This document shows positions 3,651-53,141 of a stretch of 64,000 bases of DNA, in pieces. The stretch is from Psammoneis japonica (taxonomy: Eukaryota). A program made the position numbers and the translations under genes. The notes beneath the pieces were generated by a model. It was not told where the DNA came from. It saw nothing but the letters and a program-made list of their open reading frames with translations, and did no database searches. The number at the start of each line of letters is the position of its first letter. The first letter of the stretch is position 1. Location: positions 868,001 through 932,000 of the forward strand of contig QPGO01000003.1 of assembly GCA_008632985.1 (NCBI GenBank), given 5' to 3'.

Positions 3651-3732
3651 AGAGGATTTGCCTTTCCTCGAGGAAATGCCCAGTCCACCTTTAGCTCCAG
3701 AAGATTCATTCTTTGGGACTATTGGGATCTGA
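3214..3732 (+). pseudogene. Degenerate ORF remnant, possibly the C-terminus of a transposon-encoded protein
   Basis: 172 aa frame with the segment RQLHLANVEAILDPVAVIPEVG; lies in eroded DNA; family assignment uncertain. Confidence 0.3.
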
Positions 3733-17142: not shown

Positions 17143-18150
17143 ACTCTTGCTTCACAAAACAGAAAAAATACAAGATTGTGTACGTAGCAAGCTTGTACCA
17201 ATTTTGAGAACTCTACTAGAAGATAGAAGGCACCAAACGGAGACCCAACTCATCAGACAAAGGTTTTTGCCACGCCAGGGACATTCAAAACATTTAAAAT
17301 TCATAACAATTGAATGCATGTCTCTCTTTTCATAGATGAATTGTTGAATGGAAGAAGATGTCATGGAGCAAAATCAGTGCATTTATCCCTGATGAATGAA
17401 AGCTTGTTAACCTCCTGGGGCTGTTGCTTCCATGTGTTCCAAGTTGCCACAGGAAACACATGGTTGTTTCTCGTCAACTTGTCCACCTGCATAAAAATTG
17501 TGTTCAATGCATGATTCATCATGAACAGAAGAATGGCATTCTGAGGTCCAGAGGTGACCTTGCCATTGGCTGGCATGAGCATGACCTCATGAGCAAATTC
17601 TGCTGGTCTCATCTTGTCCCAAAATTGCAATGACTGGACCAGCACAAAAAAAAACAATCAACTTTCTGTTGGCACAAACAATCTTCTCAGCTTGACTGTT
17701 GCCACACCGAAGCAGAGGAGCCATGCCAGACGAGAACCACCTTGTTGCTTGCTCCCAAGTTGAAGGGGGCCGCTGTGCAAAGAGGCAAAAAAGAAGGGTT
17801 GTGATGGCCAGACTCAAGTGATTTGAGATCTGCCAAGATGGGGGCTGTGACAGGGGTGTGCCCTGCCACTGGGTTGGAAGAGCATGTGCTGTGCTGCTGC
17901 TGGCACAAAAGAACTCTGCTTTGGTCCTGCCCTGCAGAGGAATCAGCACATTGATGAGAAGCACCCGCAAGCAAGAGCTGCCCAAATGAGAACTTTTGAG
18001 AAGAGCAAATGCCCACAATGCCATCTCACAAATTGGGGGGACACACATGCACCAATGAATGAAGACTCCCTGTCAGACAACAAAAATCTTTCCCACGACC
18101 CACCCGCCCGAGTTGGAAGGAGTGATGTGTCAATCTTGAAAAAGAAAGGG

Positions 18151-21064
18151 TGCAACACACAGCTGCTGACAAGAGTCAATGCATCACGGCGACGTGTTGC
18201 AGCCTTTGAGGTTCCGAACGGACCTTCCAACCGGCCAACTCTCAGCACTTGTGTGCATTTGCTCACATGCGACCCATTCTCGTGGCATCATGCTGGAGAA
18301 TGACATCAGGGTAGAATGACCTCGCAAGCATCAAAATGAAAAGTGAACAGCACGAGACATCATCGTGGTTTTGACCATGGCTGTTCCGGACGACAATGCG
18401 GAAAATCCACACCCGTGAGTGTTGACATTTTTGACACATGTTGTCGTTTCTAATGTGCTCATTTCACATCCATTGGAATGTCAACACTCACCCACTTGTT
18501 TGCTGTGATTTCATGGGGTTCTGGAAAAGTGACGATGATGCCGGCGATTGCACGGCACAGCTGCAGCGTCGAGAACAAGGAGAGTCAGAGAAGCTCCTAC
18601 AAAGTTTAAATGTGGCTCTCACGACTGTTGGGACTTAATCCATTCCCTGGTTGAATGACAAGTTTGCACGGCTGAGACAGTTTGTGTGCACCGTGTCCCA
18701 TCACCCTGAATGGCATCCACCATTGCACCCCAGAGAAGCGGCGCAATTGCCATCCAACGCCGGATCAGAGACTTTTGCTTTGACCAAAGACATTGCAAAA
18801 TGTCTGACAGCTCGAGAATCTTTATCTCCTGCCCCCATTGTTGTAAAAGTTCCCGTCAAGGACAAAAGAACAGAGCGACGACACAACAAGAAAGATTTTA
18901 CAAAAGTGACACCCCATGCTTTGGACGGCAACAATGATGTTGTGACAATCAAACTCAGTGCTTTTCTCAATCCTTCTTCTTCTCTCATTCAGAGTGGTTC
19001 TGCATTGAAGCTGCTAGATTTTGGTCCAATTTATTTCAGCTTTAGCAATCTCACCGATCGACGTGTCAGGTTGCTGGTTTCCAAATTTGAAGTTGTCGGA
19101 TTGGAAGCGGTCGACAAGAAGTGCATGTCTCGGTCAGAAGACAGCTCAAGACAGGGGAGAAGGCAAGCAATGGACAGCTGTGACAGTGAGAATTCTCAGT
19201 GTGGTGGCGATTCTGATGAAAAGGCGGACTTCAATCCAATCTGCACTTGTGCCAGCTTTTTGGTTGGCAGTGGGTGCGCATTTGAGACGTGGGGTGTCGA
19301 TTCTCTTGTTGTGAGAGAATTGGCTTTTGACCACCAATTGGCAGATAAAGAAGCATTCCACATGACTTTAGCTGAAAAGTGCTTTTTGCTTTGTTGCTTG
19401 CATGCAACAAATGTCTTTCATGTGAATGGACCGAATGATCGAGCAAGGCTACGCCGGGCTGCATCATCTCTGCCGTCCCGAAACGATTCCCAATCTACAA
19501 AGGACACAAAGACACCGGGAACTTAGATCTAGCAGCAGGTGCAAATTGTGAAGCTTTTCAACTGTCCAATTGTCGAACATTCCAAGTGGGCCCATGTCGT
19601 CTTCTGTCCAATCGTCACTCGTCACCTGCCTTGCTTCCTTGGTGCCACTCGTGCACGGTCTGGCATTTTGATTCGGGACAGTCTCGTTTAAAGTGCTTTC
19701 AACCACATTGGACGCAAGGGCTCTTTGAAGTGTTTGGCAGCAGGTTTAAAATTAACAAGCTTTTCAACTGTCTAATTGCCAAACATCATTCCAACCATGT
19801 CGTCCATCGCCAAACTTCTTTCGAGACGAATGACAGATTGTTGCTGGCCACCAAGCTCGTGTCATGAATCATGACCGCACTTTCGATTGTGATTGAACAC
19901 ATTTTGCATGCTGGACTTCTTGTGGCCAGTCATGTTGTCAAATGATGAGTGTCTGACGCGCAGCACAATTTTCTTTGTTGTCTGCAGTGGAACCGATTCT
20001 TCCACTCTCATGAGGAGTTGCAGGAGAGCTGTCACCCTCATCCATTTCGCAGACACCCTCCTCCACATCATGGTTGAATCTAGAGTCATTCCCATTTGAT
20101 GTGCTTGTCACACTTGTCTTGGACACAGCATCTCCCGTCTTTCCATTTCGATTTGGGGCATGAGCAGTGCAGCCGACATTCTCCAAAACTTTGTGAGCAA
20201 AAAGAAACAGCGTCTTGTTTCAAATGAAGCAGTTTGGCACAATCTTTGGAATGGTGACAAACCCATCACACTGTTCTTCATGACACTTGAAACCATTTTC
20301 TCGAAATCCAAACTCACAGTGAGTGTGATGAGCGTCGTGGTTGTTGAATCGGACTCGTCCAGCACGGCTGCATCATGCTTCCCACGCATTGCATTGACCG
20401 CATCACAGAGGGGGGGCAACCGTCAGCCATCACGCTTCAGAACTGTGTGTGTCATTGAGTTGTCCATCCAATGCCCCTTGACATTGGGTGGAAGGTGAAG
20501 GAGCACTGTCGACACAGCGTTGCAAACGCCATTGTCATTCACACTGATCCTGAGATTCTCACGATTTCTGAGAACTGTGGCATGTTTGTGTGGCTTTCAA
20601 CGAGTTTCCCTTCACGTGGCGTCAGTGCATTTTTCAACGGAGTGCACCCTGGTTGCAGGTCCCATCGGAACCTTAAATGTCACAAAGGGCGTGACAAAAA
20701 TGACCTTTTGTCTGCATGCATGCTGCGCTGTGAATTCACAGTGGAGTGGTTCATCGCAACCATTGGGCAGGAGGCCAGGGGTTCGAAACCCTGTGTGGGA
20801 GTTGTCTGCAGCAACGTTGATCACTGTCGAACGCGTAAAACTCTGTGCAGTTCTGTGTGTTCCTTCGTGCGCACCCACACTGTTCCACCAAAACCGTGCA
20901 GTGTCAGTGCACGTTGGCAAAGAGCCGCATGGACGCGTGACACATGGGGAGGAGTGCAACACACAGCTGCTGGTGAGAGCCAATGCATCACGGCGACGTG
21001 TTACAGCCTTTAAATGTCACAAAGGGTGTGACAAAAACAACCTTTTGTCTGCATGCATGCTGCA
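18151..21064 (+). mobile_element. TRIM-like element copy B, with its 5' terminal repeat split by a 2.46 kb insertion
   Basis: Starts TGCAACACACAGC at 18151, resumes at 20673 TTAAATGTCACAAAGGG and ends GCATGCTGCA at 21064; TSD AGGG (18147-18150 / 21065-21068); PPT GGGGAGGAG precedes the 3' repeat. Confidence 0.9.
18210..20672. mobile_element. TIR DNA transposon inserted at TTAA (Kolobok-like signature), degenerate
   Basis: Imperfect TIRs GGTTCCGAACGGACCTTCCAACC / GGTTGCAGGTCCCATCGGAACC; flanks TTGA and TTAA; removal restores the TRIM repeat GCCTTTAAATG. ORF remnant 18651-19526 (+) and possible minus-strand remnants. Confidence 0.8.
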
Positions 21065-21836
21065 AGGGGGCTGGCTGTCTGTGACATGGGGGGTCATCCC
21101 TGCAATTTTTGTCCCAAAGCTGCCATTGCACTTGAATGAGGTCATTTGTTGGTGTCCATTTCTGAGCACAAAAGTCGCTCTTGTTGTCCCCACCTGACCG
21201 CCTGGGGTTGTGCACGAAAACGCGCGAAGCAAAGTCAGCAGCTGCGGTCGAAGCACGACGATGATGACAATCATCGACATTTCTCAAAAACACTTTTCAT
21301 GTGTGTGAGAATTTTGATGCATGAGGAAAACAAAACAGACAGGAGTTTGAAGACTGGTGACCTCTGTCACAGACGACTTGTGGCTTGTTGTTTGCACTGC
21401 GCTCTGCCGCGGCGAAGTTCAGGAAAAATGATGCAAAACACAAGCCATTTGGCCAAATTCGAGCTAAAAAAGCAGCAACTGGCCACCCTTGATGGATTGG
21501 CCCTTCTTGCATTTTTTGTGTCTGTAGTCCAGCTGCTTGGATCGGCATCCCGTTGTGCCCTTCGGTGATGGCTGACACTCAGATGGCTTGCGGAGTGTGC
21601 GCGAGCACGCTAGCGCATGGTGTGGGGTGAGAAAACATATTTTTATACATTATTCAGAGCTATATACAATTCAATTGACATTTGTTTTCATGCCTCTCCC
21701 AACGTTCGAATTTCGAATTTTTGAAGCGCCAAAAATGTTGGAGAATGCGTTGCGGTCAAAGTGTCAACGTGGCCACCCCTCCAACAATGCAATAGTTGAA
21801 TGGTCATTTCCTCTCCCTTACAAAGAAAGCCAAAAA

Positions 21837-25329: not shown

Positions 25330-26720
25330 TCGAAAGGACCAGAAGACCAGAACGCACATGGGTTGTGTTGGGAGAGGAGCTTCGCAACTGGCTTGAACTG
25401 ATGCTTTCTCTGGTTTCAGCTTTGTAACTTTTGAGCATGACATGGCTCTCTTGCATTCTTCTTCTTGCCATCTCTCTGCCACCAGACCCAGCCAGTCAGC
25501 TGTTCTTGTTGTTGTTCTTCTTTGTGTGCGAGAGGAGGTTGCTTTTTCAAATGTGAGAAAAAGAGAAAGAGAGGAGAGCAAAAAGTGGTGCGCCATTGTT
25601 GCACGTGCTGCTCTCTCAACCCAACCATGGCCACAAACATTGACACAAGGTGACTCTTCTTTCTCTGATCCTGACAACCTCTCCTGAGAAATTGCCAGTG
25701 ACTCGCCTGCCAGCTCCTGCTGTGTGCGCACTTCTTGAAGGTGCCAGTGCTGCATGCCTTCTTGCAAATGGCATGGACCTCACACCCTGAGAAACAACAG
25801 CACAGCAGCTGCTGCAACCTTTTGCTTGTCGGCAACACCAGAGGTGCGTGAGCCATCTGTTTTTATTTGCACACGCGCAGTTTTGCACGCTCAGCGCACA
25901 TGAATGAAAAAACAACCACTCATTGTTTTTTCACTTGTGCATGGATTGCATGCAAAGAAGTGCATGTGCTGATGACAACAGAGAATTTGTGCACCTCTGG
26001 GCATCATTGCAAGGGTCAACGAGCTCATGATTCCAAACATTTTTCGTGGCCTTGACTGTCATGTGCAGCACATTCAATGTGCCATGACTGCTGTTGTGTC
26101 TGGCACATGACTGGGAGGAGCATGTGATTGTTGACAAGCAAGACTTGGTGGACTTCTCATTGCTTTGTGTGTGCTCTGCTGAGTTCTCATTTCTCCATCC
26201 ACTGCTGAGCCTCATTTTGCTGACCATGCTCATCGTGCATGTGAAGACACTCAAAATGGACAGCTCTTTTCACAAGGGGTGCAAGGCTGGTGTTGCAACA
26301 TGAACTCAAGAGAGACAAGAGTGAAGCCCTGTTGGGGAGGGAATTCAGTCGCGTGGGCACAGGCAGCACATGGGTGTTTTTTCTCCACGGCGCCCTCCTC
26401 CCAACATGATGCAGCTGCTTTTTTTTGGCGAAGCAGCAATGCCTGCTGCCCATGGAGCCCTGGCACCTTCAAGCAGACCTTGCCATTGTCATCATCCAAG
26501 GAAGAAGGAAACCAGCAACCAAAGATCGAGGCACATCGAAGTACAGACCTCCCAAGCCGGGAAGGTAAATGCCCATCGCCCGGCCACAGCTGTGCGATTT
26601 TTTTAGTTTTCCCGCCTTCACCCTTCACCGATCACCGCGTGTGCTGTGTCACCGCTTTCAAGCTTCACGCTTTCAATGCTTTTGCGTCAAGGATTCAAAC
26701 CTTCTTTGTTGCCTTGGTTT
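25330..26720. other. TA-depleted tract 4 (unclassified degenerate insertion between host genes)
   Basis: Very few TA in ~1.4 kb, flanked by TA-normal DNA. Confidence 0.75.
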
Positions 26721-29271: not shown

Positions 29272-29599
29272 CGCTCTTCATTCACTTTCAAAGGCGTTCT
29301 CTTTTTGCAGAGTTTAAAACGATGTGAGTGCTTGGTCCTTGCGTGTGTTGTAGCGCAGGCGACCATTCAATTGCACAAAAGACTTGCGGCGCTTTGCATG
29401 CAGGGAGTGGACTTTGTGAGAGGTTGACGAAAGTCCAAGTTCAAAGTCGTGAGTTGAGAGTAACGGTATGACGCACGGACAGTAGTCAAATTTCCGAAAA
29501 TGTCCAAAGGGCAATAGACATTATGGTTAATCGACAAGCCGCGCTTCCACCCGACTCCCGACTGCGCAACAAAAACCACAACACAAAAAGAAATGTGAA

Positions 29600-29865
29600 T
29601 GACAGAAATTGAAGGCAAATGGCAAGAATTCAAACAACAACCCCTTGCTGCTGTCTAAACAGCAGATGAGTCTCTGCCCAGAGACCGTCACAGGAGCCGA
29701 AAGACGTGCAAGTCGGCACAATCGGGCTGCTGCTGTCATTCTTGTGAGCCGAGTGGCTCGAAAGCAAACTGCATCGCGCGCGTGTGCACGGAACTAAAGA
29801 GCACGCGGCAAACTAAACAGCACGAGACATTTCGCGTGCACCCAAATCCTGCTCAAATCCTGTCA
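29600..29865 (-). repeat. 3' LTR of the Copia element
   Basis: TGACAG...CTGTCA termini; near-identical to 36800-37077 apart from a short indel and mostly transitions. Confidence 0.95.
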
Positions 29866-32800
29866 CTCCCCAGTTTGCTTGGGGAGTCACAGAAACAGGT
29901 TCGACTTCGGATGGAATGAAGTTCCAAAACATGAGGGGACAGAGAAGGTCCCAGACTTGGGAGCAACCCCAATGCTTGCTGAGAATGTCAGCAGGGTTGC
30001 GGGAGCCTTCGATGAAGTGGAGCTCAAGGTGACCAGAGGCAATCGCCTTGCGCACACGGTGGAACGACAGTGCGGTGTGTCGCTTGTGTAACTTAGAGTG
30101 CAGGATGGTGGCACTGTCTGCAACCAACTTGTTGTCGCCGAACATGCAACTAATGTCACGGATTGGGATGCCAAGGCAACGCAGGGTGATGCGCAGGTCA
30201 ATGATCTGCTCGACACAAGTCCTTGCCGCAACAAATTCAGACCCGTGGGTCGCAGTCTCCACAGTGGCTTGCTTCTTAGAGAACCAATCAGCCAGGAATT
30301 TGTTGAGGAAGTGGAGCATTCCCATGACAGAGCATCCGGTGAGCATGCAATGATGCAAGTTTGCATCGACGCAGTGGGTGGCAGTGACAAACTTGCCAAG
30401 GGGTGGTGGAGCGTCCTTCGGGATCATCTCCTTTGCTTCGCCACGCACGGAATGCATCCATTCACAGGCCGGTGCAGGGAGATCCGAATGGTTGGGCTCT
30501 TCCGTGCGAACGTGGAGAGCGCCGTGTCACATCTTGGAGAGGTGTCCACAGACACGTTTGGCACGATCCAAGTGGCCTTGACGGGGCGCAGCTCGGAAGC
30601 CAGAGAGTGACATGACGGCCGTGGCAATGTCAACTCGACCAAGAGACACTGCCCATTGGAGGGAACCGACAAGAGACTGGAACTGTTGAATGCCATTGGG
30701 CTCCAGCAGTTCGGAAGTGTCCAGTTCAGGGTGGTCACCCTTTTCCAGAGGGGACAGGATGTTGGTGGCAGGTTTCTCCCCAAACAGTCGTGTGTGGCTG
30801 TCGACCATGCGTTCGATGCACTTGCGCGGAGACAGACACAAGGTGCTGTCAGGATCCCGGGAGAAGTCGCAGCTTGGATGGAACTCAATCGGTCCCGCAC
30901 CCTTGAGCTTGAACTTGCACTTTTCCGTGAGAGTGTCAACGAAAGATTGAGGATCCTTCATGGCAATGGCGAGGTCATCCACACAAATGACAACATGTTC
31001 GCAGTGGTTGCCGTTCCTGCGCATCCAAATGTCGGGTTCGGCATGGCAGGGGAAGAAACCTTCAGCTCGCAGGCAATCGGCGAAGCGCTCGTGCCAGCGG
31101 AGGCCAGAGCTGCGCAGTCCACACAGGGCCTTGTAGATGACGAGAATGTGGCCTTCGAGTTTGCCAAACTCGGGTCCAGCTACAATGCACAGCTTCTCCT
31201 TGGTGGTGGCTTCAAGGCAGGCATTGCCAATGTCGGTGGCCCATGTCTCCAACTCATTGAGTTCGGCCAGGAAAATCATCAGCCAAAGGCCACGAAGGGA
31301 CACTGCTCCAGAGCAGACACTGTCGATGGGTGCGTCTGTGAGGTGTCCATCGGCTGCGAGTCATGCCTTGTGGCGTCCGTCGTGTTTCACGTCGCACACC
31401 AGGTGCACTCGGATCTTCTTGTGTCCCGCAGGAGGAGTGGAAGACTCGGAGGGCCCGCAATCATGAAAGACTTCGCATTCATCGAGTTGGTCCATCTCGA
31501 GATTGGTTGCGTCTCCCCATTTGCAGTTGCCGTTGCGTTCGTCTGGGGACATGGCGTGTTTGCAGTTCCGGGGAACTTCGCACCCGCACTTGCAGTGAGG
31601 TGCAGTGCGGAAGGAGCGAAGCTTGGCTTGGTTGGCCATGCGGAACAGCTTCTTCTGGCACCTCGCGATGGTGCGGAACCGCTTCCAGCCATCAGTGTCG
31701 AGAAGTCCATTCTCTCGTGCACAGATGGCGCAGGTGACAGGGTCGTCCTTGGCGATGATGGCAAGAGGCTTGGACGTGATCTCCCCACTTTCCCATTCAA
31801 GCATGATGTTGTAGCTTGAGCCTTTCCAGGTTGGGTCATGAGGCTTCAGAGGTCCTTCGTGTGACACAACGCGTCGAAATTTCCAAACAGCAGTGTCTTC
31901 GTCTTCTTGCTCAATGTGATTCATGATGTCGTTGCAGGCCAGGACTTCCTCGTATTCGTCATTGTTGACAGAGCAGACGAACTTGGTGAGCTCGGGGTTG
32001 CCGTTCACTTTCCAGTCATGATCTTCGACGGCCTTGATGATGCGAGCTCTGTGGCGTTGTCCATCCTCTTGTGGCTGCATGAGGAAGGTGCGTCTGATGA
32101 TGTCTTGCGGATCGAAAACTGGCATCTTGGGTGTCCTGATCTCCCCATCAGGTGAATCGATGGGGTCGTCATCATGGCAAGATTTGATGATGGGTTCAGG
32201 TGGCTCTCCATCAGGAGGATCAAGACGCAGGTTTCGAACGGAGGGATCAGTGGCAGCGGATCATACATTGGACCGGCAGAGGATCTTCTGAGTGTCATCA
32301 GAAAGAATCTTAAAGGTCATCTGGTGGCCGACGTGTTCAGCAATGCCAACAAAGCGTCCACGCAACTCACGGGATTCGGACAGCCAATCGGAGTCATTGA
32401 GGTGGAAGTGCACGGGTTCCCACCAGTGAAAGCGAAGCAACAGGCTGATGTCCGGGGTGGAGCCAGTGAGAGTCTCGAGGGGCGTGTGCCAGTGGAGACG
32501 TGGGGATGCTGTGTGGTTGAGTGTGAAGCAAACGCACATGAGTGCCAGCAGCCATGTGTGGGCAGGCGAACCGAAACGGTCCATGATGGTGTTTGCCATG
32601 CGCTTCACGGTCTGGTGTTGGCGTTCGGCAAAGTTTTGGTGTTGCTGGTGAGGCTCACTTTGCCAGCTGGAGATGAAGAGGGCTCGTAGAATCCCCAGCA
32701 CCTTGTTGCTGATCTCAACTTGAGCACGGTCGCTGATGAGTTTGGATGGAGCACCACGCTCACGGATCTGATCCTCGAGTGTGTTGACAAACTCTTTGTC

Positions 32801-33401
32801 GGTTTTGGTGCCGCAGATGTCAGTGACGGTAGACTCGGCACCAACAAACAGTTGGGCGCTGGTGCAACCAGAGTCGACGGCCGGGTGTCAGCACAAACGG
32901 TGTCAGTGGCAATGGGCTCGTTGCGGCGGTGCACATTGAGGGCTGGGTCAGGTGATTTGCAGGCCTTCTTAAGGTGCGCACCGGCGGGCATGCGGGCGCA
33001 TTGCGTGGTGCAGTCGAAAGTACAACGAACTGTGTCGGCAGGTTGGAAACCAAAGTGGGGCCGAAGAGACTCGCAGGGGGGGTCCTTGGGCTGCACATTG
33101 CGCTCCGGAGGCGGAACATCATCGTCCTTGGGGTCAATCGCGTGTGGATGACACTCGTAGAACACGTCTTCATTCGAAATGAGGTGGTCATCGAGGGTGA
33201 ACGCGTGATCGTTAGACAAGGAGGCGGACATGATGGCCTTGTTGACAATGACACGGTGACGGCAGTTGCCTCACTTGTCAAACAGGTTGGCGGTGGGATC
33301 GTCCTGTGGGTCAGAGATTGCGTCGCACCGCTGGTCGTCGTCAGTGATGGAGTGATTGAGGACGGAAGGGTCCCATGTGTCATCACCGGCAAGGATGACA
33401 T

Positions 33402-33797
33402 GACGGGTTCCAGTCCCAGGTGGGACTTTTTGTGACATTGGGCCCACAGAATTCTGCGTGCGAGCTCCGCAGTAAAATTGTTGAGCGGTGGACACATGAA
33501 TGATCGCCAACAGAAAAAGAGGCAATTTTGCGAATGCATCTCCTCCTCCACACTTGAAGCACATTCTTTGCAGCATGCCCGGGTGTGTTCTTTAGACATT
33601 AATGAACACACCCAGTTCATTTTTGTTGACACAAGTGCAGACAACAGAAAGCCTTTGGCTTCGCAAAACAGGCAGTGTGGAACAATTTTTTACAATGGAA
33701 CATGTGGAAATGCACGTGCGAAACACACGACGGATGACAAAAAACAATTGTGTCACAGTTCAGTGGTGCGAGGTCCCACCTAGAGCTGGAACACGTC
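33402..33797. mobile_element. 396 bp MITE, copy 1, inserted in Copia pol
   Basis: Imperfect TIRs GACGGGTTCCAGTCCCAGGTGGGAC / GTCCCACCTAGAGCTGGAACACGTC; 4 bp TSD ACAT; excision restores ...TLPHVILAGDDTWDP. Confidence 0.93.
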
Positions 33798-36700
33798 ACA
33801 TGTGGCAGGGTGTCCCATTCGTCATCAGTGCAGGGCCGCATGGCAACACAAGGCAGGCCACCTTTGATGTCAACAGGGATGACACAGCCATCAGGGGTGG
33901 CGACACGCTGCAAGCCGTTGGGCACCTTGACAGAGCGATCATTGACATCGTGTTTGTGCCATTCGAGCTGGCCACAGGAGTGAATGGTCTTGCCCTTTCC
34001 CGTGCATGCGCACTGATGGAGGATGGCAATGATGGGACCACGCTGTGTCTCAATGATGGCACCAGCGGTGACAATGGGGATGTCCACCAATTGATGGTCG
34101 TCAATGCCCTGAACGTCGACTTGGCAAGAGGTGCGTGCAATGACGCGAACGTCGTCGCCAGCAATGCCGCCGTTGGCTCCACGATCGACCAGAGCACCAG
34201 TGCGTGTGGAGCGATGAGCGGAGGCAGAGTGAATGACATTGTGGTTGTTGACGCGGCGGCAAGTGCGGCCGCCAAGTTCTGTGTCATCTGGAGGAGCAGG
34301 CAAGGCAGAGGGAGCGGCGGATGGGCCCGGTCGACTGGCCTTGGGGGCTTGGTTAGGAGACAACAGGCATTGCAGATCACCGGGTGGCAGTGGCTTGCGC
34401 TTGGTGAGATGTGCCAGAATGGGATTGTCTGAAGTGGCGTCCACATTCGGAGCGGGATCACCAGAGTCCGCTAGAGTCATGGCGGACAAGTTGACATCAC
34501 CGTCACTCCCAAGTCATTGGTCGTGAAGGTTGACCGCAACAGACTCATGGCAGTTGACTGCTTGTGGGTTGCGAGGAGGTGGACGAGAATGCTCAAGGAT
34601 GATCGCCTTGGAGGAATGGGGCAATGAATCCCAAATCCATTGGTGGTCGGGAGGCAGACGTTTCCATTGGTCGTTGGTGAGGCTGGGACCACGGGTGCAG
34701 GCAGCGTCAGCCTGCAGGACGTCAATGTCACTGTCGATGTCATAGAACACATCATCGGATGGTTCCTCGGAGCAGACGTCGTGTGCACACATGGCGCGGC
34801 GGGGAGCTCGAGGTGTTGTCTTGGGTTGAAACATGCTGTCACATTGAGCCGCCGCGGAGAGGAGCAAGCCACAATGTTGATCACACGTGAGGCTCTTGCC
34901 ACTCTGCGTGCGATGTTGGTCAGCTTGGTTCTTGACGGCGCGGAGTTCCTCGACAGGATGTGTGGCATTCTCGAGCATGACGCGCTTCTGTCCTTCAGAG
35001 AAGTGGTCACTGGCCGGGATGAGTGCCTCGCACTTGCGCAACTGATCCTGCCAATGAAGGATGAACCCGTGGGTCGGACCTTTCCAAGCACCATCACCAA
35101 GGCGTGTGGTGGTGAGATGTGTGAGCAAGGTGGAGGACTCGACAGATGCGTGGGTGGAGGCGAGCGCACACTCGGACAAGGTGCGGTGGACGGTCTGGGC
35201 ATCAGAAGATCCCACATTTTTGCGAATGAGAGCTTTGCCCTTGTCGGTGAGAAGGATGCGTTCGAAGACGGCGAACATGTGCTTTTGCTGTTCAGCAAAG
35301 AGCAGTTTGTCTTCGGGGCTGGTCGGTTTGTACGACGAGTCTAGAGTGCACTCAACGTCTTGGGCACGGGCTTGTGCCACAAGTGAGGTGTGCCAAGTGT
35401 GCCATTGCTTGTCAGATTTGAGAGCCGTGAAAGCAGTGGGGTCGCGCTTGATGCCTCGCTTGAAGTCTCGCACTGGGTCGCGTGCCTTGGTTGGGTTGGT
35501 GACGTGCGGAGGTGCAAGAGGTGAGTTGCCGACAGACACAGAAGACATGCAGTCAGGACTGAGGCGGCAGGCAAGGAACTCATCATGCGTGAACAACGAA
35601 GAGTCATTGGCAACATCGAGGCCCTTGTGTGCTTTGACAATGTGCAGACTGACTAGAGCTGCTGACATGTTCTTGTGACCTCGGGGCAATGGGATGACAT
35701 TGGTGCCGTTGTCGCACTCAAGCAAGTCGATTTGGGAAGGTGTGAACGTGAACAGTTCTTGGCACGAGTCCGTGCCGTCGTGGGTCAAAGCCAAACAAAG
35801 AGGACTTCCAGCACCTTGGGCAAGCACGGTTCCAACAACGTGCTCGAAACCATCGGTTTGTTGCTGACGAGTGAGAACCATGACAGGCAAAAGCGGTGTC
35901 AGTGCAAGCGATTCTTGGCAGGACGCAGAGGCAGACTTGAAACTTGGGCAGAAATGGACTTGACTTGAAATCTTGAACTGTCTTAAAATCAGAAGTCGCC
36001 GGGCTGTGCTGTCCTGTTTGTTGTCAAGTGCTGAACCTCCCATCCGGTCCGTAGAGTTGTGCCAGCACGTCTGAACCCGCAGCCAGCGGCGCTTTGGGTT
36101 GCTTGCAAGCGGAGCAGTGGGTTGTAAACCCCTGCAGGCAAGCTGACTGGAGGTGGACAAGACCCCCGAACCGTTCTCATTTTATGTTGGTTGGATTTCC
36201 CGATCAGGCTGGCCAGTTGACGCAGGCGCCAGGCGCTGTGGACGAACGAACAAACGCGGGAAAATGCCCTCGCCCCAACGCAGGCTGCAATCACGGCTGC
36301 TTGCTCTCACAGTCATCCTCATGGACCTGGTGGAACTGCAGAGCACCAGCAGTCCGGGGCAGATCAGGTGCAACAGACTCGGTGTGCTTGTGGAGTGGCA
36401 GCAAAGCCGCAGTCCAAAGAGTGGGTTCAAGTTCTTGGCCGTGAAGACACACGTGTGTGTCTTCAGCGATGAAGATCTTTGAATGTGCAGGGTTCTTGAC
36501 CATCAACCGTTGAATGGGCACATCAAGGAATGAGGATCAAGGACAGACTTGGATGCAACCGTTGAGTGCATGTCTTCAGCGACAAAAGGCAGCACAATCA
36601 ATCCAGACATCCAGCGGCAAGGAGACTTGACGGTGACGTTAAATTCCTGCCGATGCCTGGTGTTGAATGCACGTGGACTTGCCGATGTACACGCAGAACA

Positions 36701-36799
36701 CACACGGAGGTCCGCGCAGAATTGAAACAGCGTTGTCGGTAAATCAACGATGACGATGGCGGTTGCTCAATGGGTTGACAATGAGCAAGACTGTCAATC

Positions 36800-37077
36800 T
36801 GACAGAAATTGAAGGCAAATGGCAAGAATTCAAACAATGGCTCCTTGCTGCTGTCTAAATGGCAGATGAGTCTCCGCTCAGAGACCGTCACAGGAGCCGA
36901 AAGACGTGCGAGTCGGCACAATCGGGCTGCTGTCATCATTCTTGTGAGCCAAGTGGCTCGAAAGCAAACTGCATCGCGCGCGTGCGCGCGGAACTAAAGA
37001 GCACACAAAACTGTGCGCGGCAAACTAAACAGCACGCGACATTTCGCGCGCACCCAAATCCTGTTCAAATCCTGTCA
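36800..37077 (-). repeat. 5' LTR of the Copia element
   Basis: Pairs with 29600-29865; TG...CA termini. Confidence 0.95.
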
Positions 37078-37129
37078 GTGAATGGCGGACACCATGGACT
37101 GGCTTGTTGATTCTGCCAACGTTTTGTCT

Positions 37130-39530
37130 TTGTCAAAGGTCACACTGCCATTCCTTTCAACGTTTGTGAGGGTTGGGCTTCTTGTCTGCCTTTCCCACAA
37201 CTGTCCGTTCTGGTCAGAGGCGCGACACCCTCAGATTGTTGCGAAACGCGCTCTTCTTGCAAATCTTCCATGAAGTCATCCACCACGTAAAGAGGTTTTG
37301 GTGAAATCAGGGCCCAATTAAAACATCTTTTGTTCAACACAAAATCATGGTGTGTGGCAGGCGTGGAGCTGGGAAAACAATGGCAGCAACTGAGGCTCTG
37401 TTTTGGACAAGCGACAGGCACGACAACAAGGTGGAGTCTCGCGGCTGCGAACATGCAACTGCAGAAATGAAAGAACATTGGAAAAACTTGTTCAATCCTG
37501 TGAACCTGACCCACATGCAGCATGTCTGTCTCAAGATCAAGAGCGCCTGCAAACCTCTTGTTGTCGCGGCTTCTTCCGCCGAAGCACAGGGTGAGTCAAA
37601 AACAGTGCTGAGGAGCTTGCTGCATTCTTGCAAGACAGAATCACAGCACAACACAAAACGCATTTGACTTGCTGTCAATGTGTCATCTTCTTGTGCCAAC
37701 CTCCACATGAAGACAATCTTCACAGTGCTTTGAGCATGTCCCGCATGTTTTTGTTGGACTCCTCACCCCAAATGAAGCACATGCCCTCATTTGGTAGAAG
37801 AGTTGCCGTCAAAGTGGGCTCAAACACAGAAACGGACAGTGTCACTTAAGATCACTTCAAAGCTGGGGTGTCACATTCTTTCTGTCAATGCAGCAGATGT
37901 GGGAGTTTGTTCAGCGCAGCTGGAAAAGGCAGTCTCCAGCTGGGTCTGGAGCGCCATGGTGCGTGTGGGGCATGCTTGGAGCACCAGTGCAAGAGCTCCA
38001 GACTTCAGGACACCACACCTGTTGGCTTGAACACTCAGCACTCCTTTTGTGAGTGTCAGGAAACCAGTGGGAAATGATGTCCTTTCTGGGCTTGGAGCAA
38101 CAGCAAAGACAAATCGACATCCCGGGAACGCTTGCCACCACAGCTTGTGGTCACTCAAGGCATCCATCCAGACCTGAAGCAACCTTGCAATGCTCTGTGA
38201 AGCATGCCATGCTGCGCTGGAGCGCGCCACAGTGATGACACCAATTGCATCATGCCCAGGCAAGTGCTTTTGAAAAATGAGGTTTTGAAGCAAAAAGAGG
38301 GAAAAAAGGGGGGTTTTGAAATTGTTCCTGCATTTTGGAGTGTGGGACGGGACCTGTTTTGGGTCACAAAGCAAAAAAGTGGTGATGGTTGATGAAAGTC
38401 ATGCATGAAAGACAGTCAAATTTTCAGAATGTGTCACAGGTGCAATGGACAATGCCCCCAGTGTGCGCCAAGAATGACGTGCACAAAATCTCCCCAATGG
38501 AGTTTTTGCCAAAAATCCACACAGTCTGCAACCTGGTCTTGTTGGGGATGCAAAACATGCACCCTCGGCAGACCAAGTTGGTTGTTGCCAACATGCAGCA
38601 TTGGTGCACTCATGGCAGCCTTCAGATGATGCACCTCCTTGCACAGTGAGGTTTGCTCCTGCGATGGCTGCTTTGGCCCCAAAAATCTCCCAATGCCGGC
38701 ACCCCCCCACCCACCTGATCCACTGTGGCATGTGCGGCACAGTGCAGCCCACCTGGACTGGCATGTTAATTTTGCCAATGTTTTCCCTTTGTTGAAGGTC
38801 ACACTGACACTCCTTTAAATCTTTCTGATGGGGTGGGCTTGTCTGCCTTTCTTGCAATGGCTCGTTTGGTGGGTCAGGTGTGAGGACGCCTTTGGATTGT
38901 TGAAAGGTGCTGTTTTTTTGCAAATCTTCCAGAAAATCTCCTGCCATGCAACAAGGTCTTCAGTGAATTCAGGGCCCAATTGAAACATTCTTTGTTCAAT
39001 GCAGTCACCATGGTGTGCGGCAGACATGGAGCTGGAAAACAATGGCAATCAAAGCTGTTTTTTGGACAAGCAACAAGGCCATGACAGGGTAGAGTCTCAT
39101 GGCAGATGTGCACGAATCTGCAACTGTGGAAATGAAAGAACTTTGGAAAGACTCATGTTCAATCCTGTGGACCCAACCCATGTGCAAGATGTCTGTCTCA
39201 GGATCAAGAATGCCTGCAAACCTCTTGTTGTCATGGTTTCCATTGAAGCACATGCCAAGCCAAAAACGCTGGGGAGCTCACCACATTTTTGCAAGACAAA
39301 ATCGCACAACACAAAAAGCACTCAATCTGTTGTGGATGTGTCACCTTCTTCTCAACAAGAAGACAGACTTCAAAGCATTTCAAGCATGGCACATTCCACA
39401 TTGTTGTTGGACCCCTCACCCCAAGTGATGCAAGCACATTTCCATTTGATGGAAGAGCTGTCATCAAATTAGACTCAAACCCAGAAACAGACAGCATCAC
39501 TTGAGATCACTTCAAATCTGGGGTGTCTTG
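37130..39530. repeat. Two diverged copies (~37130-37875 and ~38790-39530) of an eroded ~750 bp segment
   Basis: Shared anchors AAGGTCACACTG, CAGGGCCCAATT, GGAGCTGGAAAACAATGGCA, CTGCAAACCTCTTGTTGTC, AGATCACTTCAAA-CTGGGGTGTC; both copies are TA-poor. Confidence 0.75.
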
Positions 39531-40305
39531 TTCTTGCTCTCAATGTCATCTGTGCCGAACTGTCAGACGGAATGAGCACTGATGAAGCACTGAGAGTTGT
39601 GCATGCAACCTGCCAAGAATGCAAGAACAGTGCTTTGAATCGACTTGGCAAGTTTTACAGCTTCGCAGCTGTCAAGTTGAAGAAACTGCCAGACAGTCCA
39701 CGCTCTCTGGTTCTATAAAGATGTGATGGTCTGGACACAAATGGAATCCGAAGCCTCATTGCATGCCTCACTGTCACCAGCTTTGCGACCCCAATCAAAG
39801 GACTTGGTTCACCCCACATCTTTGAAATCAACCCTTCCTCAGAAGAAGTGACACTGGGCGGATCAGGGATGAAGGATGTTTTTCTGGAGCATTGTCGAGA
39901 ATAAATTTGCCTGCAGATCACAGTCGGAGTGGCGAAGCAGGATTGAACACATAATGAACATTGCCAACTTATTGCAACTCACGGGTGCCCGGGGTTTCAA
40001 ATCGAACGACTCTCTAGCTAGAACTATCGGCAAAAGTTGTTTTGGTGGGAATGAAAGGAAACCGACTCTATTGTCTCCCCGGTCTACGTCTCTTTCTGCC
40101 ATGCGGTACTCTCCATGTGGGAGTTCGGACAACACAATTTCGAAAAACTCAATGGCGCACCATTCCGCCACAGCAAAGTACAGTAGCTACTCACTCCCAT
40201 TGTCACGGAATCAAATATTCTATTGTTTTTAGTACATCCACCGTCATGCATACACAATATCTCTAAAGCAACAAAAGCCCTCTTCATGCAGCCACGCCAT
40301 TTTCT

Positions 40306-45224: not shown

Positions 45225-46650
45225 CCTGCCTGCCTGCCTGTCCTGTGCCTGCGCCTGTGGCGCCTGTGGGACTCTGGAGTTTGACTCGAGCTGGGCCCAG
45301 TCACAAGATGTTCAATGCAATGCATTGTGGAGATGGTTGACAGTGTGAGAAGAAGGTTCTTGTGGAGCCACAAAGCTGCTGAGCCGGGGAGCACAACAAA
45401 CAAGCCACGCCCCCAGATTGCAGCAAGAAACGTCGCCAGTTGCCACACAAACATGTGACCCACATCACTGGCCTGATTGGTTTGAGCGACCTGAAAGCCC
45501 TCAAATCTCCTCTGTCACTGCTGCACAAGGACATGTGCAAGAAAAAACAGCAGCCCCCATGGCACGACGTGTTCCAGCACCAGGTGATGTGCAAAACGAC
45601 AACTCTGTCAGTTTGCACATGTTGGCCACACTTGGCACCAATTGCCCCAAACTCCAGCATGTCAAAAATGCCTTGTCCATGCTCCAGGGAGCTGTTTTCT
45701 CAATGAGAAGCAAATTCCCAAAGTGGTGCCCAACACACATCATGACAGTGAGCGTGGTTGCGCACACAGCAACAGCAGGTGCTTTCCACCTTGTTGTGGC
45801 AACAAAAGTGCACCATCAGAGCCCCCGCATTTTCCGTTTCTCTCTTGTCCAGTGCAATGGCTGCCAACTGATGGAGATTTTGGCAACTTTCAAGTGCAAA
45901 GTCATCATTGTTGCATCCTCTTTTTTGGCCATTTTGACCTCTTGCTCAAAAGAGCAGCACTCGCGACATGAAAACAACGCTGTTGAACCCTTCATGTCCA
46001 TCCAAGCCAGCTTGTGTCATCATTTCTACATCACACAGATCTGTCAAAGTGACCTCATGCAGCAACTTTTGGGTGAATGCAGTGGGTCTGTTTTGGCATG
46101 AAATGTGCCACACAACTGAACAGCAGTTCTTTCATGACACATGTGTCACATCTGCTGTTTCATGTTGTCAACTGGCACACCACTTTCATGGAAGATTGAG
46201 TCTTGCTGTTGCGATGCAGATGGATGCCAATGTGGTGGGATGCAACACTGGTGCAGCACATGACAGGACGCTCATCAACAGACTGTCCAATTGTCAAGCT
46301 AAGACTGCACAGCAAAGATTGTCATCCTCAACCACTGTTGGTGGGACAACATGATGTCTCCAGTGGATGCATCCCAATGAGGTTTATACACTTCCAACCT
46401 GCCTGTCTGGAAGTTTCTTCACTGCCGCAAGTGCTCCTGGAGAGGCGCAGGATTGCGACGACCCTTCGACGTGCGTTGTTTTGGCGAGTTGCGCAAACTG
46501 AGAGAGCATGCTTTACAATGCAATGTGGTTTTCCAAGACGAATTCAAATCCCGTCGTCGGCGATTGCTCGAGTGACGTTTCCACATGCCACTCGAGATTG
46601 GAATGTTTCACTGTGTTGTGAAGAGTTGCAATGACCGGTGGAAAAAAAGA
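45225..46650. other. TA-depleted tract 6 (unclassified degenerate insertion)
   Basis: Essentially no TA from ~45225 to ~46025 and very few after; lies between two TA-normal genes. Confidence 0.8.
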
Positions 46651-47582: not shown

Positions 47583-48154
47583 GGCGAAGAATTATCACCA
47601 GAATGCGATGTGCGTTCATGCTCTGCGCGCGCAACACGACTTTTTGCCCGCACGAACGGAGCTGGCAAGGAAGCTGCGGGAAAATCAGGTTATGAGCCAA
47701 AACTAGCGCTCTGATGCTGTCGTGAAACAAGACTGTGTCGTGCGCTGGGTAGGCCATCCACGACCCCATGTTGGCGGAAACAGTCTGCGTGCGGTTCACG
47801 TGAAAGACGCGTTTTTTCAAGAGAACAAGACGATTTCGGCCCTCTAGTTCAAGTTTAAGCCTAGGACCAGATTTAATTCTTGATGGGGTGCTGCCACCAC
47901 AATTGAGAGCCATTGAGCAGCCAGTTTGCATGATGGCAGTGACACAGAAATCTGATGGAAAGAAAATGCAAAAATGAGTGCGCTGCGGCACAGCATTTTT
48001 GTCCGCATTTGGAATCCCTGTCGCAGGCTCCAGCAGCTTACAACAGATGCATCATGCACAGCATCTAAACACACATCATGACTGATGAAAAGAAACAGTT
48101 TGCCATCCATTGCAAATGGAGACAGTGCAGATTGCAGCAACATGCCATTGCGAT

Positions 48155-49277
48155 TCAATCCCTGCGAAATTGCGACCCCGACTGAACCTTGTCTGGCTTC
48201 GGCAATGGAACGTCTTTCGGACTCGGCTTCAGATTTCCACACAAATCTTCTGTGCTAAAAAGACCTTTGCCATGCTCAAATGACAATTGTGCCGCAACAG
48301 CGCAGGCACGGAAACATTGGCCATGCAGGCGGATGTCGTGACGAAAGCGTTGCGAAAGACACCCAAACAGCTTGAGACGATCATTTGCCGTCTCTTGTTT
48401 GTTGCGCACAGCCCCTCTTGCCTTGGCGACAACTTTTGGCTCCATGTGGCGAATCCCACTCGTGCTCTTTACACACTCCGGGTCCTCCGCTCCGTAGCCG
48501 TCATCGGCTTCAACCCTCTCGTTCTCTCCCAAATGGTGCTTGACAGAGTGACGGAAGATTTCGAGATCGGGCCAATCTCCACAAGGAAATGGCCCGTTGA
48601 TCCACACAATGTTGCCGGTCAAAATGCACACACAAACTTCACACCGGAGGCCAGCCTTTTTGAACTTGAAAGAATGAAATGCCTTTGGGTTTTTCCCTTG
48701 GCTGGTCGCTTGACAATCGGTGCAATCGACTGTCGCCAAGCAGTCGAGGCCCTTGTCTCCAACGAGACGATTCGACCACACAATCTGTGAAATCCGCAGA
48801 GGAAAAGGTTAGACTGAGCATCATTCACATGACACAATCAGGCTGAAAACTCACCACTTCGAACTCCAGGTGCGAAACTCGGTCAATGAAGAACCAACCC
48901 CACTTGCGAAACATCTGTTCGTCAACTCCGCCGCATTTACAAGCAAGGTCTTCTTCGGTTTTGCATGTTTTCACCAAAAGCAATGCCCAGAGCAGATGAA
49001 CTGGCTTTGCATGTTTCTCATCTTTATCTGGCTCTGATTCTGGGTCGGGAACGCCAATCCTCAGCCTGGTCCAGACGTCGACACAGACAGCGGGCTCAAC
49101 AGCAAAGTGAGATGTCCACCGTCAGTCGAACACCACTTCGCTCCCAGTCCACGGGTGGCAGTTCATGATTTCACTGCCAAGTTCAATGAATGTGTCGTGG
49201 TTGGGACCCAGCTTCTTCTTTGTGGGGGGTCCTGCCGCGGCATCGCCCTGTGGGCGTCGTCGAGTCAACGACATCGT
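48155..49277 (-). mobile_element. PIF/Harbinger-ISL2EU-type DDE transposase pseudogene
   Basis: TVDCTDC, FHSFKFKKAGLRCEV, GNIVWINGPFPCG-WPD, VEADDGY, QETANDRLK; N-terminal HLLWALLLVK segment; frameshifts and stops. Confidence 0.85.
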
Positions 49278-50349
49278 GGAGTGTCGTTTTCTCCGCAAAA
49301 CTGGGCCCGCCAAGATGGATGCAACATCAATGATTCTTACACAGTCTCGAATGTGCATTTTTTGGTGAGCCGTTAAAAGTCATGCTTTGATGCAGTGCGG
49401 TTGTGCGACGACACAGGCGAACGCTTTCGAACTGCTTCGCACAGCACCGTGATGTGCGATGCTCAACAGCTGTGATTTGAATTAGAGTTCTCAATCCATT
49501 GAGGTCACATGACAAAATGCAACACATTGGCTTGTGTGTGTGTGAAGTGTGGTTTTTGCATCTGTGGATGTGCAATTTTTCAGAATCTGGAATTTTGACC
49601 GGACTTTTCGATTTTGACCGAAAAGAGAAAGTCCGGTCAAAATTCAAATTTTCGGTCAAAATGAGCCGAAAAAAAAGAGGTGTTTTCGGCTCACTTCAGT
49701 GGCCTGCTGTCTGTAACCAAAGCCCGTTTGATGGCAGGCCGATGCTTGTTCAAGGAGCACCACACAACTGCTGTTCAGAATCATCCTTCTTCATGTTGTC
49801 TGCGGATTAAATCCAAAGATGTACAAGGTTGCACAGACATGAAAAAACTGACCTGAAAATGGTTTTCAGCTCACTTCAGCCTCATTCACATTTTGTGTGA
49901 TTGCATCAGACGGCAGTGCTGAGGCACTTTCTGATTGCTTGTTTGTGCAACTCTTTGATGGTGTGTCATTGTGTTGTCCAACGGCCTTTCGTGTGAAGAT
50001 GGGAAGGATTGAAGTGACCGGAAAATGAAAAAGACCTGTTTGAAATTTCGGGCCGAATTCGATTTTTCCGGTCGGATTAATCGGACATTTGTTGCTTGAC
50101 CAGAATTCTCTCAACTGACCGGAAATTTGGCGTTGATGTCCAATGATCACATTCAGTTTTAAAGCTGTCATTGTCAGTGTTGCCACAAAAGCTTGCATGT
50201 GATTTCATTGCATGTCTCTGCGTCACTTGCACAACGAAAACGTGGCATGGTGCATGCAGGCAGCCCAAACGAAGTCTCTCGATGGCTTTCGAAGAACAAA
50301 GCCAAGGCTCCACGCTCACTCAGGAGCCAAGATGCAGACGCATCCACCC

Positions 50350-52879: not shown

Positions 52880-53141
52880 GGCCTGTTCCAGCTCCAGGTG
52901 TTCCGCACGGGTTCAATTTCCATCATTTGGAAATTTGTGCATTTGGCGCAATTGACTTTTTCCAAATCCGTTTTTTGCCAAATCGAAGGGTGAGCGCACA
53001 CTTTACATGCATTTTCGGGTGTACACTCACCTTTCGATTTTCGAAACGATCAAAATTGAAGGAGTCAATTGCACCAAACTGCACAGAAAATCGGCCTCTC
53101 TTGCGTGATGAAAAGCAGAGCACCTGGAGCTGGAACAGGCC
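52880..53141. mobile_element. ~260 bp MITE of a related family
   Basis: 21 bp perfect TIR GGCCTGTTCCAGCTCCAGGTG / CACCTGGAGCTGGAACAGGCC; TSD not clear. Confidence 0.8.

Follow-up and report, generated by a model that had tools for sequence, protein, structure and literature searches.

The DNA examined here is a stretch of 64,000 nucleotides (nt) from the diatom Psammoneis japonica (contig QPGO01000003.1 of GenBank assembly GCA_008632985.1, positions 868,001 to 932,000 of the forward strand), referred to throughout, at its full length, as the window; all coordinates are counted from its first letter. At 29600-37077 on the minus strand lies a complete Ty1/Copia retrotransposon with long terminal repeats (LTRs), whose DNA is nearly devoid of the dinucleotide TA (TpA) and whose pol frame is nearly devoid of tyrosine. 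An earlier interpretation of the same DNA, made from its letters only and called here the sequence-only reading, had described a structurally young Copia of diatom type, with an intact target-site duplication, closely similar LTRs and conserved tyrosines replaced systematically by cysteine or histidine. The present analysis takes up these claims.

Direct LTRs of the TG..CA type, a perfect 5-bp target-site duplication (GTGAA at 29595-29599 and 37078-37082, intact as claimed) and an RVT_2 reverse transcriptase (RT) domain above the Pfam cut-off of 31.6 bits identify the element as Ty1/Copia. Its best protein match (phmmer against 1.84 billion representatives; 30,361 matches at E up to 0.001) is P0003, a protein of 1881 amino acids (aa) with which it is collinear from gag to RNase H; the pol frame, P0001, follows P0003 residues 881-1878 at 59% identity over pol. 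The best named relative, and the only named one among the ten best-hit clusters, is P0006, a Ty1/copia protein of Fistulifera solaris (53% identity). The diatom affinity proposed earlier held good, the named matches of the host's nucleotide-sugar transporter gene at 43865-44992 being all diatoms (52-60% identity). An integrase-like SEP..QN..E stretch 5' of the RT was recognised by eye alone; the rve domain was absent from the Pfam scan of both the element and P0003, no primer-binding site was recognised by eye, and in tblastn seven homologs matched this element only, with no further Copia copy in the window. The parts of the element are given below, where X1 denotes one public sequencing run, used as word-based contigs with a depth of 30-60 per contig.

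29595..29599, no strand: left copy of the target-site duplication GTGAA, read directly; identical to 37078-37082
29600..29865, minus strand: 3' LTR (in the sense of the element), 266 nt, TGACAG..CTGTCA
29813..32887, minus strand: pol frame P0001, with the C-terminal part of the integrase, RT and RNase H; three in-frame TGA
29866..29876, minus strand: polypurine-tract-like run, sense strand AAACTGGGGAG, abutting the 3' LTR; read by eye
30527..30529, minus strand: in-frame TGA in pol; arginine in 7 of 20 homologs, and CGA in 26 of 26 contigs of other copies in run X1 (place 30529, A>G)
30851..31432, minus strand: RT domain RVT_2 (PF07727), P0001 residues 486-679, E=1.5e-13, 51.4 bits
30971..30988, minus strand: RT catalytic motif ICVDDL; homolog consensus vYVDDL
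31361..31363, minus strand: in-frame TGA in pol; arginine in 20 of 20 homologs
32261..32263, minus strand: in-frame TGA in pol; arginine in 16 of 20 homologs
32882..32884, minus strand: frameshift, a G present in other copies being missing behind 32882; tblastn changes frame at 32884
32884..33402, minus strand: N-terminal part of the integrase in a third frame; tblastn match to P0003 residues 690-880
33401..33798, no strand: nested non-autonomous element of 398 nt with 26-nt terminal inverted repeats (TIRs); other Copia copies are without it
33617..36181, minus strand: gag-protease frame P0002; P0003 residues 1-700 align to 33773-35881
34514..34516 and 33617..33619, minus strand: in-frame TGA in the gag-protease frame
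36800..37077, minus strand: 5' LTR (in the sense of the element), 278 nt, longer than the other LTR by a 12-nt insertion
37078..37082, no strand: right copy of the target-site duplication GTGAA, read directly

The claim of structural youth survives in part, for the element is near-intact, yet it carries the TIR insertion, a 1-nt deletion and five in-frame TGA (three in pol and two in the gag-protease frame). The LTRs are likewise alike, but less so than had been implied, with 89% identity by blastn when the 12-nt indel is included and 93% over 205 nt. The RT motif at 30971-30988 reads CVDD where homologs have YVDD, and thus lacks the YxDD of a competent enzyme; this copy is a dead member of Ty1/Copia. 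The RVT_2 profile gives the element 51.4 bits versus 96.9 bits for its tyrosine-bearing relative P0003, which serves as a natural counterpart to the restored sequence proposed in the sequence-only reading, since consensus residues put back into the element would improve any profile score by construction. The nested TIR element is a later arrival that is not retro-copied, and it is equally TA-depleted; in other copies, contigs of run X1 join 33399 to 33804 across the empty site at depth 927. At 50748-51145, 17 kb away, the TIR element recurs, inverted and 90% identical, and the words of this element have a very high summed depth in run X1.

Within 29597-37077 (7481 nt) TA occurs exactly 40 times, which agrees with the roughly 40 in 7.5 kb counted in the sequence-only reading and corresponds to an observed-to-expected ratio (o/e) of 0.11; the ratios of the other dinucleotides are 1.62 for CA, 1.44 for TG and 0.80 for CG. 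Seventeen of the residual 40 stand in CTAA, TTAG or TTAA, and each LTR keeps three TA, all within CTAA.

The effect on the proteins was read from an alignment that joins the element to 20 long homologs, chosen among the first 26 of 150 listed, in which a consensus-tyrosine column was defined by tyrosine in at least 60% of at least 8 homologs. Not one of the 22 columns so defined keeps its tyrosine: 12 have become cysteine, 6 histidine, 2 phenylalanine, 1 tryptophan and 1 arginine. Elsewhere the conserved residue is kept in 382 of 447 columns (Fisher p=7e-18 versus tyrosine), and the share of columns kept is 50-100% in every non-tyrosine residue class, or 71-100% if methionine (2/4) is set aside. 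Substitutions spread evenly over the residue types, which the sequence-only reading had named as the result that would speak against it, were thus not what was found. Its eight motifs all proved to be where it had placed them, and the tyrosines it had expected from diatom Copia elements are borne out by the consensus of the 20 homologs, which has Y in each motif: vYVDDL, ALYGLrSSG, GNAYLEA, PkYKFGVqVPRnyqEA, DPvTvAiYA, TYVDANLmH, ATYGSEF and KHwgysqiw. The route it had suggested from tyrosine to cysteine or histidine, an A to G change at TA on either strand, fits 18 of the 22 columns. In composition, the pol frame contains 0.3% Y, 4.0% C and 5.2% H against medians of 3.8%, 1.2% and 3.2% in the 150 listed homologs; when P0003 alone is compared, its 63 aligned tyrosines correspond to C in 28 cases, H in 13, F in 7 and Y in only 3.

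The direction of this change is revealed by outgroup DNA, for which we used 36 related Copia loci found in metagenome contigs with an RT-segment protein query. In 35 of the 36 the RT segment is ordinary, with a TA o/e of 0.58-0.94 and mostly 4-6% tyrosine; hence TA-poverty is not a trait of this Copia lineage, and a natively TA-poor lineage is ruled out as an explanation. Seven of the loci align without gaps to the 831-nt RT segment of the element. TA is shared by at least 70% of these seven at 12 positions, and there the element has TG 7 times, CA 3 times, CG once, TT once and TA never. Against the closest locus, L001, 36 TA correspond to CA in 14 cases, TG in 13, TT in 6, TC in 2 and TA in 1, while dinucleotides other than TA are kept at 29-67%. 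Outcomes of CG are rare (tyrosine to arginine in 1 of 22 columns), and therefore the first hit removes the target for the other strand; such rarity is what would be predicted if an intact TpA step were required. One metagenome locus, L003 (match 1599-2429, 66% identity), is intermediate, with a TA o/e of 0.31 and 3.2% Y, 2.5% C and 3.6% H, and possibly represents partial editing of a copy in a different organism.

The depletion had originally been tied to the Copia element; it is present there, but it is not specific to that element, and every repeat-like domain of the window is affected. In bins of 500 nt the TA content is bimodal with sharp edges, and about 59% of the window falls within depleted domains. 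These (37,904 nt) have o/e values of 0.09 for TA, 0.57 for CG, 1.58 for TG and 1.63 for CA, as compared with 0.54, 0.99, 1.20 and 1.22 in the normal domains (26,096 nt); the GC content is 0.467 in normal versus 0.502 in depleted DNA. Within the normal domains, DNA outside open reading frames (ORFs) has a TA o/e of 0.78 over 3850 nt, which shows that the neutral condition of this genome is not a depleted one. The depleted domains are as follows.

501..4000, no strand: TpA-depleted domain, TA o/e 0.03-0.25, CG 0.24-0.55
6001..11500, no strand: TpA-depleted domain containing a repeat family shared with 18149-18230 and 20673-21071
17501..21500, no strand: TpA-depleted domain
25501..26500, no strand: TpA-depleted domain, 1 TA per 1000 nt
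29597..40000, no strand: TpA-depleted domain, the Copia and an adjoining old tandem repeat
45501..46500, no strand: TpA-depleted domain
48001..55000, no strand: TpA-depleted domain in which the other copy of the TIR element lies
58501..64000, no strand: TpA-depleted domain in which CG is lowest (o/e 0.17-0.41 from 60001) and both GC and AT are strongly skewed

The left edge of the domain at 29597-40000 is the end of the LTR itself, the last TA of the flank being at 29528 and the next at 29656. The host genes recognised, which encode a DegP-like protease, 6PF2K, a sugar transporter, an EF-hand protein and a leucine-rich repeat (LRR) protein, all lie in normal domains. The only Pfam matches of depleted-domain ORFs are a methyltransferase fragment and an LRR gene, both at domain edges; the former is the minus-strand ORF 514-912, a weak class-I methyltransferase match (Methyltransf_11, E=1e-6). 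The 103 depleted-domain ORFs of at least 110 aa are spurious, occur in all frames and have near 0% Y with high C and H. Long spurious ORFs fill the depleted DNA because TAA and TAG vanish there, and gene callers would predict proteins from them. The segment 60001-64000 is the most extreme, with TA o/e 0.00-0.15, CG 0.17-0.41 and TG/CA up to 2.0, and with skews of about -0.2 (GC) and -0.17 to -0.39 (AT).

The loss of TA follows a rule set by the flanking bases. The ratio of TA survival in depleted versus normal domains is 0.00 in ATAT, 0.04 in ATAC and in ATAG, 0.08 in GTAC, 0.11 in ATAA, 0.16 in GTAA, 0.17 in CTAC, 0.26 in CTAG, 0.42 in CTAA and 0.74 in TTAA; by trinucleotide it is 0.05 for TAT, 0.11 for TAC, 0.20 for TAG and 0.30 for TAA. 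Loss is thus ordered TAT > TAC > TAG > TAA, and TTAA is almost spared. All ten contexts are fitted, as a matter of arithmetic, by a per-strand multiplicative model in which the A of each strand survives independently according to its 3' neighbour, survival being about 0.86 before A, 0.5 before G, 0.2-0.3 before C and 0.1 before T. Survival is lowest with a 3' T or C, and the tyrosine codons TAT and TAC are for that reason the best of targets.

Repeated sequences disclose when and on which strands the change took place. Between the two LTRs there are 17 transitions and 1 transversion, and 3 CA/TG doublets in both orientations are among these differences; both LTRs carry TG-type as well as CA-type outcomes. 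Summed over all repeat pairs of the depleted domains, transitions number 245, transversions 56 and CA/TG doublets 56, against 106, 105 and 2 for the repeat pairs in normal domains, which are old gene duplicates. The decay of CpG alone predicts about 3 doublets (arithmetic from CG/CG 61 and CG/x 38), so that most of the 56 descend from TA. In the younger repeat pairs 84% of the transitions fall at TA- or CG-derived sites. The coding strand of the element has TG 667 times and CA 736 times and hence no bias toward the sense strand; these counts, with the doublets between copies, uphold the earlier statement that both strands had been hit. Because repeat copies, the LTRs included, differ by transitions and CA/TG doublets, the change occurred after integration, at the level of DNA and on both strands.

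Several of these repeats deserve description in their own right. Directly to the right of the Copia is an old tandem duplication (37090-37890 / 38750-39545; 74% identity, 115 transitions, 46 transversions) with the lowest CG of the neighbourhood (o/e 0.15-0.4), and it was apparently at the border of this already edited repeat that the Copia integrated. A short repeat family (9670-10125, 18149-18230 and 20673-21071) has direct and inverted copies in two depleted domains, and copies of it differ solely by transitions and CA/TG doublets. Duplicated gene-like segments (15853-16411 versus 21700-22276, and 16580-16748 versus 23253-23421) are TA-normal at 70-74% identity and serve as an internal control: their transitions about equal their transversions, TA is retained, and their ORFs belong to no Pfam family.

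Superimposed on the loss of TA is a change of CpG to TpG/CpA, with a loss of CG that is uneven among the depleted domains (o/e 0.15-1.0), while that of TA is uniform. The three TGA codons of pol point to a CpG to TpG decay of what were probably arginine codons, and they are attributed to this separate decay because homologs have arginine at these places and other copies have CGA at 30527-30529. Methylation to 5-methylcytosine (5mC) is known on silenced transposons in diatoms, and it is most likely the source of the CpG decay in the depleted domains.

The contigs of run X1 match 29312-29625 and 37052-38400 with 0 differences. On the element itself there are 13,892 contigs, and the summed word depth, which is not a copy number, is 36,000-238,000 versus 33-59 in the flanks. 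The Copia family is clearly abundant and each copy has its own transitions: differences of the other copies comprise A>G 154, G>A 137, C>T 119 and T>C 138, with 5-23 for each transversion, individual differing places being available for the best-supported 40 of 675. A second left-flank contig (29312-29599) has 15 other letters and 30 gap letters at about half the depth, ends at 29599, and could be the other haplotype without the Copia. Tyrosine-poor Copia fragments also occur in other public assemblies, with C or H at 12 of 13 consensus-tyrosine columns in P0083, 5 of 7 in P0127, 7 of 10 in P0140 and 8 of 12 in P0045. The existence of these four fragments indicates that the effect is not unique to one family or assembly. 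They are about 50% identical to the element; P0045 keeps 3 tyrosines and P0140 keeps 2.

What was observed is a signature with a definite direction, on both strands, imposed after integration and restricted to domains. The explanation that we favour, with a probability of about 0.75, is that a domain-targeted, two-strand DNA hypermutation that erases TpA operates or once operated in this diatom. Under this scheme, the Copia would integrate and a mutational process would then act on its DNA within transposon and repeat domains, converting the A:T pair of 5'-TA-3' to G:C on either strand so that TA becomes TG or CA; the first hit would destroy the second target, and TA would rarely proceed to CG. 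The 3' neighbour of the mutated A would set the rate (T > C > G >> A), such that TAT and TAC would be erased first while TTAA and CTAA would largely survive. The outcome would be an almost open frame without tyrosine, lacking those of RT YVDD, LYGL, NAYL, YVDA and RNase H, and hence a copy that was sterilised yet not broken up. By analogy, the process would act as a genome defence, like the repeat-induced point mutation (RIP) of fungi but opposite in direction.

A more specific proposal, and our first choice, is that the chemistry is a deamination of adenine in DNA by a candidate polynucleotide adenosine deaminase of the TadA/ADAT2 type, enzymes whose natural target in tRNA is U33-A34-N; we consider this possible, although at somewhat less than even odds. 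Equally tentative is the broadest form of the idea, which we would not favour in an even wager: that diatoms run an active, targeted editor which deaminates adenine at 5'-TAY-3' in newly integrated transposons and other silenced DNA and soon sterilises them, as a mirror image of the RIP of fungi. Given that a rhizarian alga has the same signature, such an editor would be old within SAR (Stramenopiles, Alveolata and Rhizaria), an overlooked and general arm of eukaryotic genome immunity and a natural adenine editor of double-stranded DNA. There is a precedent in the chlorarachniophyte Bigelowiella natans, in whose mutation-accumulation lines 231 of 302 new mutations fell in two integrated viral regions and were, in those regions, almost all A to G or T to C on TpA, according to the text of the preprint that describes them (Mettrop et al., bioRxiv 10.64898/2026.01.13.699255, 2026). 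The same text reports a footprint of low-TpA, high CpA+TpG clusters enriched for RT and DDE domains, and its authors proposed an ADAT2-like DNA adenine deaminase (bioRxiv 10.64898/2026.01.13.699255).

The same footprint might in principle have been laid down by other means. Editing could occur in the course of retrotransposition, through an ADAR- or ADAT-like deaminase acting on genomic RNA and/or minus-strand complementary DNA (cDNA), and the copies would then be born mutated from a healthy master, in an A-to-G counterpart of APOBEC3 restriction. The great abundance of the family and the transitions by which its copies differ accord with this, and a dead-on-arrival model would explain many sterile copies; but RNA editing cannot make U3/U5 differ between LTRs, and 18 LTR differences were seen. 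Nor is there the strand bias that such a mechanism implies (TG 667 vs CA 736), and the signature recurs in the nested TIR element, the tandem repeat and unannotated domains. With the B. natans events having arisen, as their preprint relates, in resident DNA (bioRxiv 10.64898/2026.01.13.699255), editing during retrotransposition appears quite improbable. A less distant variant retains the domain-targeted process and places the chemistry on thymine: a dioxygenase of the TET/JBP type would oxidise the T of RTA to 5-hydroxymethyluracil or 5-formyluracil (5fU), which mispairs with G and yields T to C. 5fU is mutagenic, the attacked base of an A:T pair is indistinguishable from the footprint, and the flanking rule can be restated as a 5' neighbour preference of A > G > C > T. 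Oxidation of 5mC at CpG could be a further activity of that enzyme, and TA and CG, both self-complementary pyrimidine-purine steps with a 5-methylpyrimidine, are depleted together. The decay of CpG is, however, explained more simply by deamination of 5mC, and the loss of CG varies (0.15-1.0) while that of TA is uniform, which argues for two separate processes; we regard the oxidation of thymine, the main chemical alternative to a deamination of adenine, as unlikely.

Explanations in which no targeted process exists fare worse. If a neutral bias against TA prevailed throughout the genome, TA would survive under selection in genes and the depleted DNA would simply be unconstrained, and it is true that the recognisable host genes are all in TA-normal domains. 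Nonetheless, the highest TA (0.78) is that of the non-ORF DNA in normal domains, the domain edges are sharp and the left one is an LTR end, the LTRs, which were identical at integration, already have a saturated loss of TA with few other changes, and the gene duplicates of normal domains keep TA at 70% identity with transitions about equal to transversions. Such a bias is therefore very improbable. Still less credence can be given to an artefact of sequencing or assembly in which modified bases at TpA and 5mC at CpG were misread as TG/CA, although both dinucleotides are plausible sites of modification and no library type is recorded for run X1. The contigs of that run agree with the assembly, with 0 differences, at both junctions and through 1.35 kb of depleted flank; a misreading of both strands would give mixed calls rather than clean, reproducible TG/CA; tyrosine-poor Copia fragments appear in unrelated public assemblies; and the same signature was obtained in B. 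natans from Illumina mutation-accumulation data, by the account in the preprint (bioRxiv 10.64898/2026.01.13.699255). GC-biased gene conversion among copies was considered and rejected, as it is not specific to TA and gives no discordant doublets.

Against the hypermutation of TpA itself must be set several considerations, the most direct being its imperfect specificity. In the younger repeat pairs 21 of 130 transitions (about 16%) lie outside TA- or CG-derived dinucleotides, and at least one A to G change in an LTR (36840) has no present-day TA context; therefore either the specificity for TpA is high yet not absolute, or a third process contributes. The split of the lost tyrosines between histidine and cysteine by the preceding base is in the predicted direction (4 histidines and 4 cysteines where A or G precedes, 2 and 10 where C or T does), on small numbers. 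The depleted domains were drawn by eye from TA content, which makes their low TA partly circular, and the composition of the normal domains is not truly that which the repeats had ancestrally; the only results on which the drawing of the domains has no bearing are the context differences, the analyses of pairs and the comparisons with outgroups. None of the 103 depleted-domain ORFs of at least 110 aa belongs to a transposon-type Pfam family, and the other depleted domains are consequently unassignable as transposons. A dependence on repetition is left unsupported because 37.1-38.4 kb is depleted though single-copy by depth (at least 85% likeness). Run X1 is possibly the source data of the assembly and so not fully independent of it, and the whole inference is drawn from one 64-kb window.

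If the hypermutation of TpA is real, a phenomenon described in B. natans would be found in a second major lineage as well and would take in transposons proper. What would be added to the earlier case is the saturation, the involvement of an abundant family of LTR retrotransposons and of every repeat-like domain of the window, and the flanking-base rule, whose motif order TAT > TAC > TAG > TAA offers a concrete criterion for testing candidate enzymes. Diatoms are tractable as well as ecologically dominant, and the system would be open to direct study. There would also be practical consequences: edited transposons have long frames (TAA and TAG being lost), no tyrosine and poor profile scores, which affects the calling of genes and transposons in diatoms, and edited copies look older from their LTR divergence than they are. 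Base-editing work would also take an interest in a natural DNA adenine editor, if one exists.

Comparison with known systems may begin with the diatom elements themselves. The CoDi Ty1/Copia elements (Maumus et al. 2009, PMC2806351) are likewise Copia-type elements of diatoms, and the accessible text of that paper makes no mention of hypermutation, dinucleotides, deamination or tyrosine. No report of TpA loss in diatom transposons was encountered in the literature searched, which included the available portions of PMC2806351 and bioRxiv 10.1101/2025.10.24.684338 and had subscription journals outside its scope. The CpG decay of methylated transposons resembles the present case in the fall of CG o/e to 0.57 and in the CGA to TGA stops of pol, but it can neither yield tyrosine to cysteine or histidine changes nor remove TA. 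APOBEC3 (G to A) and ADAR (A to G) also leave clusters of deaminase-type transitions in retroelements; they act, however, on cDNA or RNA during replication and are strand-asymmetric and limited to retro-copied sequence, whereas here the change is symmetric and extends to non-retro repeats, the TIR element among them. The 3' preference of ADAR is moreover unlike the T > C > G > A found here. On the 5' side ADAR prefers U, as noted in the B. natans preprint text (bioRxiv 10.64898/2026.01.13.699255).

The RIP of fungi is closer in its logic. It too consists of post-integration, DNA-level transitions on both strands, sterilises transposons, to which it is limited with sharp edges, and leaves a dinucleotide footprint. 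It differs in changing C:G to T:A, mostly at CpA, and thereby raising TpA and AT content, whereas here TpA is removed, CpA and TpG are gained, and GC is raised; it depends on sequence duplication and a sexual phase, while the present case is known from its footprint alone. Diatoms do encode RID-related DNMT4 enzymes of unknown function (PMC9998398). DNMT4 is a cytosine methyltransferase and does not explain A to G.

The nearest parallel is that of B. natans, for which the comparison relies on the text of the preprint (bioRxiv 10.64898/2026.01.13.699255). That text, supplements aside, does not mention diatom, stramenopile, trinucleotide or retrotransposon. Its host is a chlorarachniophyte (Rhizaria) and ours a diatom (Stramenopiles); its targets are insertions of giant viruses and virophages that are mildly depleted (Rho TpA 0.45 in the region of nucleocytoplasmic large DNA virus, NCLDV, origin), whereas this window has targets near saturation (o/e 0.09), namely an LTR retrotransposon, a TIR element and repeats without annotation, in which a hierarchy of 3' neighbours and a co-located loss of CpG were seen. 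De novo events and their rates were measured in B. natans, in contrast to a sequence footprint here. In both, nevertheless, A:T pairs become G:C at TpA, giving TpG or CpA according to the strand; in B. natans the change is confined to regions of foreign origin in a genome that is elsewhere ordinary, and in our single 64-kb window A:T to G:C transitions on both strands are likewise regionally confined. As far as a comparison of footprints can tell, the one left in this diatom matches the sole described case, that of B. natans, which comes from a different branch of the supergroup.

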